IMG/VR virus record: IMGVR_UViG_2778261085_000011 | Coordinates: 1 to 13,532 of that record | DNA from: a virus | Lineage: Duplodnaviria; Heunggongvirae; Uroviricota; Caudoviricetes | DNA: 13,532 bases | Strand: one strand, 5' to 3' | In this document: positions 11,842 through 11,881 of the stretch, piece after piece | How positions within the stretch are numbered: the first letter of the stretch is position 1 | Layout of the letters: every line of letters begins with the position of its first letter | Translations under genes and position numbers: made by a program | Notes under the pieces: model-generated | The model's input: only the letters and a program-made list of their open reading frames with translations | Told to the model about the DNA's origin: nothing | The model's database searches: none

Positions 11842-11881
11842 AAAACAGTACCCACCGTTTTAAAACGGTACCCACTGTTTT
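11842..11881. promoter_or_regulatory. Near-palindromic 40-bp element with two AAAACNGTACCCAC direct repeats around ACCGTTTTAAAACGGT, upstream of alpA
   Basis: AAAACAGTACCCACCGTTTTAAAACGGTACCCACTGTTTT read directly; 65-105 nt upstream of the alpA start, between the int-operon terminator and alpA. Confidence 0.55.

Follow-up and report, generated by a model that had tools for sequence, protein, structure and literature searches.

Based on a comparative analysis of a 13,532-nucleotide stretch of viral DNA (the window), we found that a 40-bp repeat element at 11842-11881 is probably a pair of cognate operators for the product of the small upstream gene orf80, here called X, and would as such gate the promoter of the regulatory gene alpA. 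Across the loci compared, X alone among the proteins of the island accounts for where the motif occurs.

Judged by gene content and layout, the window is a Gram-negative PICI-type phage satellite. The features looked for were a unidirectional int - alpA - replication module, small size, integration at a tRNA or conserved gene, and packaging or capsid genes without tail or lysis genes. The minus strand of the window encodes an integrase, orf80, alpA, a long ORF with an Ash/Icd-like C-terminus and a DUF4222 protein, as well as a RepA-type/AAA_25 helicase, an SSB, two PerC-like genes and TerS-like fragments. In E. coli relatives with 95-99% identity the island is located at tRNA-Pro beside yejM and carries capsid, decoration and TerS genes. 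The earlier note had presumed that AlpA-family proteins control islands of this kind, and this premise holds for the satellite studied here, as alpA is known to be the induction switch in Gram-negative PICIs (PMC6092414). The module that contains the element consists of the following genes:

12291 to 13532, minus strand: P4-type tyrosine integrase gene (family matches), first gene of the int - X - alpA module.
11947 to 12189, minus strand: orf80 (X), 80 aa, start codon GTG, Shine-Dalgarno sequence AAGGAG at 12203-12198.
11570 to 11776, minus strand: alpA, encoding a 68-aa AlpA-family HTH regulator (PF05930, E = 4.5e-8).

Elsewhere in the window, isrK (80 bits) and C4 antisense RNA (76 bits) were found side by side at 9391-9576(-) with Rfam, and together they read as a P4-type RNA immunity module. 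They lie inside an 805-aa ORF (9148-11565(-)) with family matches at its C-terminal end only (Ash at residues 663-753, Icd-like at 757-800). As the first ~600 residues gave no matches, this ORF may encode a large protein of the Bro network, or it may not be one gene. Two genes occur in duplicate, namely phrog_1561 (2519-3109(-) and 3763-4059(-)) and the PerC-like phrog_994 (1660-2031(-) and 4565-4852(-)), and a TerS-like fragment is present at 2877-3179; the duplicated genes suggest that part of the island was duplicated internally or that a second satellite left a remnant in tandem.

The element and its parts are as follows:

11842 to 11881, minus strand: 40-bp element, which in the alpA sense reads as distal unit AAAACAGTGGGTACCGTTTT and proximal unit AAAACGGTGGGTACTGTTTT.
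11848 to 11856, minus strand: core GGTGGGTAC of the promoter-proximal unit, identical to the family motif, starting 80 nt upstream of the alpA ATG.
11868 to 11876, minus strand: distal core AGTGGGTAC, with one mismatch to the motif, oriented like the proximal core and 20 bp upstream of it.
11854 to 11869, no strand: perfect 16-bp palindrome ACCGTTTTAAAACGGT, made by the abutting flanks of both 20-bp units.

On the plus strand the element consists of AAAACAGTACCCACCGTTTT followed by AAAACGGTACCCACTGTTTT, which are two 20-bp units in tandem of the form AAAACnGT-ACCC-ACnGTTTT with 18 of 20 positions identical (90% in the repeat finder). A perfect 16-bp palindrome and two 14-bp direct repeats, GTACCCAC(C/T)GTTTT, had been described for this site before. 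We recovered the palindrome exactly, with a central base that differs among relatives (TTTT/TTTA). The direct repeats are also real, but the two 14-mers match at 13 of 14 positions and are therefore imperfect, and two tandem 20-bp units are the better description. The 40-bp repeat is real: allowing up to three mismatches to AAAACNGTACCCACNGTTTT, just the two copies in the element were detected in the whole window where 0.01 were expected, and the two matches were reproduced in none of 200 shuffles. Likewise, exactly two core sites are present in the window, both of them part of the element, with a single orientation and a distance of 20 bp. Five AAAACnGT half-sites elsewhere in the window, against 2.7 expected in total, were rejected as functional sites, their number being consistent with chance.

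To our knowledge, the element fits none of the consensus sequences for LexA, Ogr/Delta, CII, IHF, TyrR, PurR, KdgR or GntR-type regulators. A literature search with the motif strings returned unrelated primer sequences only. Integrase arm-type sites are expected within ~250 bp of the att core and to track the integrase variant; the element is more than 1.6 kb away from the int 5' end and the tRNA-side att, and this candidate role was rejected.

Three further features define the surroundings of the element:

11910 to 11942, minus strand: strong intrinsic terminator downstream of orf80, with a 10-bp stem and then T8.
11813 to 11825, minus strand: block TTTACCGTATTT, invariant in 27 sequences and including the putative alpA -10 hexamer TATTTA (11818-11813).
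11793 to 11811, minus strand: 10-bp direct repeat CACCGGAATA/CGCCGGATT, between the putative -10 and the alpA Shine-Dalgarno sequence (GAGG at 11789-11786), kept in all clades.

As the element spans 66-105 nt upstream of the alpA ATG and is downstream of the terminator, it is located in the alpA promoter region, in agreement with the placement given in the earlier note. The terminator is predicted to insulate alpA from int/orf80 transcription. No sigma-70 consensus promoter was detected in 11400-12500, and we infer TATTTA to be the alpA -10, with no recognisable -35. Relative to the start expected from this hexamer, near 11806, the 20-bp units are centred at ~-46 and ~-66 and the whole element ~55 bp upstream. 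The sites end ~29 bp upstream of the putative -10, and thus upstream of the -35 position.

The CACCGGAATA/CGCCGGATT repeat, of which STEC2017-197 and locus L048 have three copies, is a candidate second operator and possibly the site of AlpA itself. More speculatively, the site of AlpA, if it has one, may be either this repeat or a TTACCGT block that is present also in the X-less E. coli relatives. A scan of genome contigs with AlpA gave only distant relatives from Acidobacteria and Alcanivorax and was uninformative. The AlpA of P. aeruginosa with its binding element (ABE) was considered as an analogue and rejected, this antiterminator being larger, Q-like and unrelated to the 68-aa AlpA. In alpA genes of the MSQSLIRF type (L121, L132, L205 and others) a conserved hairpin, CTCGTAA-N13-TTACGAG, is found ~40 nt before the ATG. 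Its 3' arm overlaps the Shine-Dalgarno sequence GAGG, which suggests translational control of these genes.

The conservation of the element was determined within Escherichia in alignments of 7 and then 27 distinct sequences. In relatives that include O26:H11 11368 and Nissle 1917 the alpA module is ~79% identical, and the BLAST alignment stops just past the element. Three blocks are conserved, namely the element, TTTACCGTATTT ~18 bp downstream of it, and the CACCGGAATA/CGCCGGATT repeat. The 17-18 bp between the element and TTTACCGTATTT vary in sequence and are constant in length in the 27 sequences. The element and this spacing are kept in three E. coli clades in which the intervening and flanking DNA has diverged; in the O26-type clade even the upstream terminator is swapped for a different hairpin with a T run at the same place. 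This pattern supports the view that the element is a conserved cis-regulatory site at a fixed spacing from the alpA core promoter, and indicates that it is under selection.

The two units are not conserved to the same extent. The proximal unit retains GGTG(G/A)G(T/A)AC in nearly all relatives (one variant is GGTTGGTAC), and its core has at most one mismatch in all three E. coli clades. The distal unit, probably an auxiliary site, varies more (GTGTATAC, GTTATAAC, GTTCTAAC). Within E. coli, the palindromic flanks AAAACnGT/ACnGTTTT are kept to a greater extent than the cross-genus core would account for. The presence of the element goes together with that of orf80, which was directly upstream in all 48 IMG/VR loci retrieved by the DNA pattern alone. 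O26-type loci, which have orf80 and an AlpA of 66-76% identity, retain the element, whereas it is absent from AlpA relatives at 69-74% identity without orf80 (L007-L011, L092, L093).

The orf80 gene may have a promoter of its own:

12238 to 12243, minus strand: TATAAT, read from the sequence as the -10 of the presumed orf80 promoter; invariant across three clades, with no consensus -35.

The consensus promoter scan called no promoter at this TATAAT. Four tandem repeats of ~10 bp, AACCAGTACA, ACCAGTGCAA, ACCATGCTAA and ACCATCGTAT, are located at 12241-12280(-), overlapping the -35/spacer region of the presumed promoter, and they are partly kept in other clades as AAAACC(A/G)T repeats.

The orf80 protein is 64-73% identical among relatives in which the DNA no longer aligns. 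It gave no match to Pfam, PHROG or NCBIfam, and an exhaustive HMMER search yielded a domain family of 396 cluster representatives. Most members are 200-320 aa long, the part that resembles orf80 being the C-terminal ~65 residues, and the E. coli X is without the ~150-aa N-terminal domain of its relatives. In orf80 this so far unnamed domain of ~65 aa stands by itself; it has three helices, a basic GGRPKK tail and the consensus SEGLxxVxxAIxQFWSTYDPxDxxTAPTKxEVixYLxxxGaSKNmAeAiDlILRPxxLxxxGRPxK. The comparative data, together with a weak fold resemblance, tentatively suggest that the domain binds DNA; Foldseek gave no match to X at an E of 0.001 or better. PDB sequence matches to ankyrin repeats were rejected as spurious, being caused by an 'EVVxxLxxxGA' string. 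The X family was not mentioned in the literature searched, and the family, its motif and the cassette-like exchange of regulator and operator before alpA appear to be undescribed.

A 90-aa database protein (P0013), assigned to the nematode Cooperia oncophora but almost certainly derived from bacterial contamination, represents a fusion of orf80 and alpA in frame. It joins ...PTKHE to ADSSLQDM..., with terminator and element deleted, and the join is at a place where orf80 and AlpA look alike (one segment EVVSFLRSRGAS).

Gilliamella, Xenorhabdus and Providencia also have the genes in the order int - X - alpA, and an alpA-type ORF follows X in 36 of 42 tabulated loci, in most at a spacer length of 145-260 nt. 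Spacers of distant loci, which cannot be aligned with the window, contain GGTGGG(T/C)(A/G)C in both orientations. The Xenorhabdus sequence GGTGGGTACCGTTTT matches the distal unit of the window at 14 of 15 positions, and the Gilliamella match GGTGGGTTA is weaker, with two mismatches. In an unbiased 7-mer count from which E. coli was left out, GTGGGTA and GGTGGGT ranked at the top. In 23 X-alpA spacers we counted 9 exact copies of the core (0 in shuffles), 29 copies with at most one mismatch (0.49 expected) and 65 with at most two (6.4 expected). The core density was 5.7 per kb in the X-alpA spacer compared to 0.14-0.22 per kb elsewhere in the same loci. No sites were found in the 300 bp upstream of X genes, and autoregulation of X via the same motif was rejected.

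The extended consensus is A-W-n-GGTGGGTAC-Y-n-W-W. In the other genera the cores are single or variably spaced and form no hairpin, and the palindromic arms, read as two 8-4-8 operators for a generic dimer because within E. coli the arms seemed to be kept and the centres to vary, were rejected as the functional unit on cross-genus data. The direct-repeat view is closer to the functional unit, because the asymmetric centre GGTGGGTAC is the part conserved across genera. In one Gilliamella X-alpA spacer (L099, 4740-4775) we also observed AAAATTAACCCACCTATTTT, which resembles the plus-strand unit AAAACAGTACCCACCGTTTT of the window; it has two core mismatches and the opposite orientation to alpA when compared with the window unit, and may be a weak site or a coincidence in AT-rich DNA.

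Additionally, we determined which gene the motif follows when AlpA is held nearly constant. For this, 80 IMG/VR loci with an AlpA 75-100% identical to one reference were collected, of which 61 remained after duplicate upstream regions had been removed, and these were sorted by the gene directly upstream of alpA (X, Y, Z or none recognised):

X-type spacers, n = 8: X motif GGTGGGTAC in 7 of 8, Y motif in 0, Z motif in 0.
Y-type spacers, n = 27: X motif in 2 of 27, Y motif TACCCTnAGGGTA in 26 of 27, Z motif in 0.
Z-type spacers, n = 11: X motif in 0 of 11, Z motif ACTTCCAMA in 11 of 11.
No recognised upstream gene, n = 15: X motif in 0 of 15, Y motif in 0, Z motif in 2.

In this set, in which AlpA is at least 75% and up to 100% identical, GGTGGGTAC was thus present in 7 of 8 X-type spacers versus 2 of 53 others. 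An autoregulatory operator of AlpA should co-vary with AlpA, and these counts do not support that role. Loci L205 and L207 have an AlpA 100% identical to that of L206 and differ from it in both upstream gene and motif, by which AlpA is excluded as the protein that the motif tracks. The window AlpA and the reference AlpA are 31% identical over the C-terminal 39 residues only and cannot be aligned in their N-terminal HTH regions, whereas the X domain of the window is 55% identical to that of an island with the reference type of AlpA, and the motif is conserved between them. X and Y have homologous domains at their C-terminal ends (hhalign probability 96.5%, E = 8e-10), and GGGTA is common to their motifs. 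The upstream gene Z is unrelated, and its repeat is its own.

The motif does not follow the integrase either. X-less loci with integrases 87-88% identical to that of the window lack the motif, and integrases of X-bearing loci range from 82-83% down to 23% identity. Escherichia, Xenorhabdus and Providencia have the motif, and Gilliamella a weaker form of it, in each case only at loci that encode X. X and the spacer could have been inherited as one cassette, and as they may move as one block, linkage would account for part of the co-occurrence. The argument for an X operator is based on the survival of the motif in diverged spacers and on the parallel shift in specificity between X and Y. In line with a regulator-operator cassette, X adjoins the sites, the sites are concentrated in the alpA promoter region, and the operator changes with the regulator variant (X, Y or Z) nearly one-to-one.

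Some variation in repeats was observed around these genes. Upstream of near-identical alpA genes (L205-L284, 260 nt examined) three or more different genes occur as alternatives, each of them with repeats of its own, and the Y-type repeat TACCCTnAGGGTA forms 5-6 palindromes. Other alpA alleles have arrays of their own: at least six Z-like AAAACTTCCA repeats are present just after int in L092 (1700-1960), and EcCICFT073 (L013, 9190-9250) has six 10-bp AACAACnnnn repeats just after int.

The earlier note had put forward AlpA itself, a helper factor or a host factor as the binder. If AlpA bound both units, it would activate its own -35-less promoter in a positive feedback, as has been reported for EcCICFT073 and EcCIMP1 (PMC6092414; PMC11773190), and site centres at these distances from such a promoter would suit an activator. 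We nevertheless consider this unlikely, as GGTGGGTAC follows X and not AlpA: at constant AlpA the motif is essentially confined to loci with X upstream, and it is shared by islands whose AlpA proteins have unalignable N-terminal HTH regions. No more copies of the motif are present elsewhere in the island, and EcCICFT073, the very island in which autoregulation was demonstrated, has a different alpA allele and no motif; with its upstream region differing as well, it was rejected as a direct experimental proxy. Within E. coli, the putative recognition helix of AlpA reads LQxMIxAG in the variants that go with the element, and LTxMIN(K/R)G or FYEMIKRG in close relatives that lack it. Because the helix differs with the presence of the element, AlpA may make a contribution there.

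An activator from the helper phage or the host that docks at the element, in the manner of P2 Ogr or P4 Delta ~55 bp upstream of P4 PLL, would tie alpA directly to helper infection, and we regard this as less probable still. Helper phages are known to turn on alpA of EcCICFT073 through an unidentified factor (PMC6092414), and the missing -35, an element centred ~55 bp upstream of the inferred start and the isrK and C4 RNA immunity would be compatible with such an activator. However, direct reading of the element revealed no Ogr/Delta dyad TGT-N12-ACA (only ACA-N28-TGT is present), no LexA box CTGT-N8-ACAG (the outer arms ACAGT...ACTGT have the opposite polarity and are 26 bp apart) and no CII- or IHF-type consensus. 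In a BLAST search of 11836-11887 against the 50,697 phage records of INPHARED nothing better than E = 0.3 was found, and the 1-kb region around the element had no phage match, which leaves the proposed helper factor without support. The host factor is not supported either, since in several genera the motif depends on an island-encoded gene, which is unexpected for a factor of host or helper. A helper factor may still act on X or compete for the site. The least probable explanation is a structural DNA or RNA element in place of a protein operator, which could be a cruciform, a weak terminator or a signal for replication or packaging. The 42 bp around the element are an imperfect palindrome (82% complementary, a 22-nt overlapping inverted repeat in the repeat finder) that as single-stranded DNA folds at -11.6 kcal/mol (z = -3.5), and the terminator scan flagged a hairpin at 11870-11853(-). 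Its stem is A/U-rich, though, with no adjoining U tract and ~50 nt past a strong terminator. Relatives keep the sequence and not the pairing, as the 4-bp centres and the 'n' positions of the units vary without compensation, the GGGT of the core is asymmetric, and cores elsewhere are without a hairpin. A purely structural role is unlikely because of this uncompensated variation and because no relevant Rfam match was obtained even at E up to 1. Origins of PICIs map downstream of the primase gene (PMC10111431), which speaks against a replication signal at this place.

We propose that the element consists of two tandem operators in the same orientation, each with the core GGTGGGTAC between A/T tracts, and that the binder would be the orf80 product. 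The corresponding C-terminal domain is encoded in hundreds of islands, there in proteins of 200-320 aa, and nearly always between int and alpA in the contexts inspected. X could be made from its own promoter, from int read-through or from both, while the terminator would shield alpA from that transcription. Bound at the two sites, X would gate the weak -35-less alpA promoter. In the quiescent island X would repress alpA, infection by a helper phage would relieve the repression, and the positive feedback of AlpA could then take over.

If X binds, we consider repression the more likely sign of its action, although not by much. In loci with a long X or with Y, arrays of 3-6 sites reach and abut a -10-like hexamer, and the long-X loci have a TACCTAT(A/T)TT string similar to the TTTACCGTATTT block at the same place. 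X is on the int side of the terminator and could thus be expressed while alpA is silent. Repression is favoured by these arrays, by the position of X before the terminator and by a silent default that fits satellite biology. Activation is a less probable but serious alternative: the sites in the window are upstream of the -35 position of a promoter that has no -35, a layout classically seen with activators, and sense-strand scans of one long-X spacer (L132) and one Y spacer (L205) detected no consensus promoter by alpA either.

Gram-negative PICIs are common and serve as vehicles for virulence, defence and transduction. It is an acknowledged question how such islands are kept silent and how helpers switch on alpA, as the Gram-negative PICIs described so far have no evident repressor and the inducer is unidentified (PMC6092414). 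Our analysis offers an element in cis and, as the candidate factor acting in trans, a member of a large family without Pfam, NCBIfam and PHROG annotation. It also suggests that the slot from int to alpA takes up different regulator-operator pairs as cassettes. It is tempting to go further, tentatively and with the balance somewhat against it, and to see in X, Y and Z exchangeable cassettes, and in the element the operator of the 'missing' master repressor of Gram-negative PICIs, with derepression specific to the helper; the 80-aa X of E. coli would then be a minimal form with the DNA-binding domain only. If true, this would give a handle on the prediction of helper specificity, on the engineering of PICI-based delivery vehicles and on the annotation of hundreds of hypothetical genes. 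Should X be an activator or not bind, the element would still mark the control region of alpA and the broader claim would fall.

The arrangement resembles several known systems. Like the Stl repressors of SaPIs and other Gram-positive PICIs, X is a satellite-encoded regulator beside the promoter of the induction/excision operon, regulator and operators are swapped as cassettes of differing specificity, and the arrangement implies silencing of the island until the helper arrives. Unlike Stl, X has no kinship to it in sequence or fold, and is co-directional with alpA, whereas Stl-type genes are divergent; moreover, the E. coli X is just 80 aa long without a sensor domain, and its repression is proposed here from the sequence. 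The autoregulated alpA promoters of EcCICFT073 and EcCIMP1 belong to the same kind of island, control the same gene and have their sites in the same position upstream of alpA. In contrast to these, the motif described here goes with X instead of AlpA, and EcCICFT073 differs in its alpA allele, has the 10-bp AACAAC repeats upstream, and has neither GGTGGGTAC nor an X gene.

The P4 PLL and P2 late promoters are activated by Delta/Ogr through the dyad TGT-N12-ACA centred at -55, and Vis, a homologue of AlpA, is encoded by the first PLL gene. Similarly, the promoter in the window would be -35-less, drive a gene of the AlpA/Vis type and have an upstream site ~55 bp before the inferred start, and the island shares with P4 an RNA immunity of the CI/C4 type. 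Unlike in P4 and P2, two tandem asymmetric cores are present instead of one dyad of this consensus, and no gene for an Ogr/Delta-type zinc finger was seen in the window. From lambdoid immunity regions (cI/cro with OR/OL) the arrangement differs in the fold family of its proteins; moreover, there is no pair of divergent promoters and a bistable switch is not evident. As in those regions, the homologous regulators X and Y have distinct but related operators, and they are swapped between otherwise near-identical neighbours. Operators beside the gene of their regulator are an already known kind of system.
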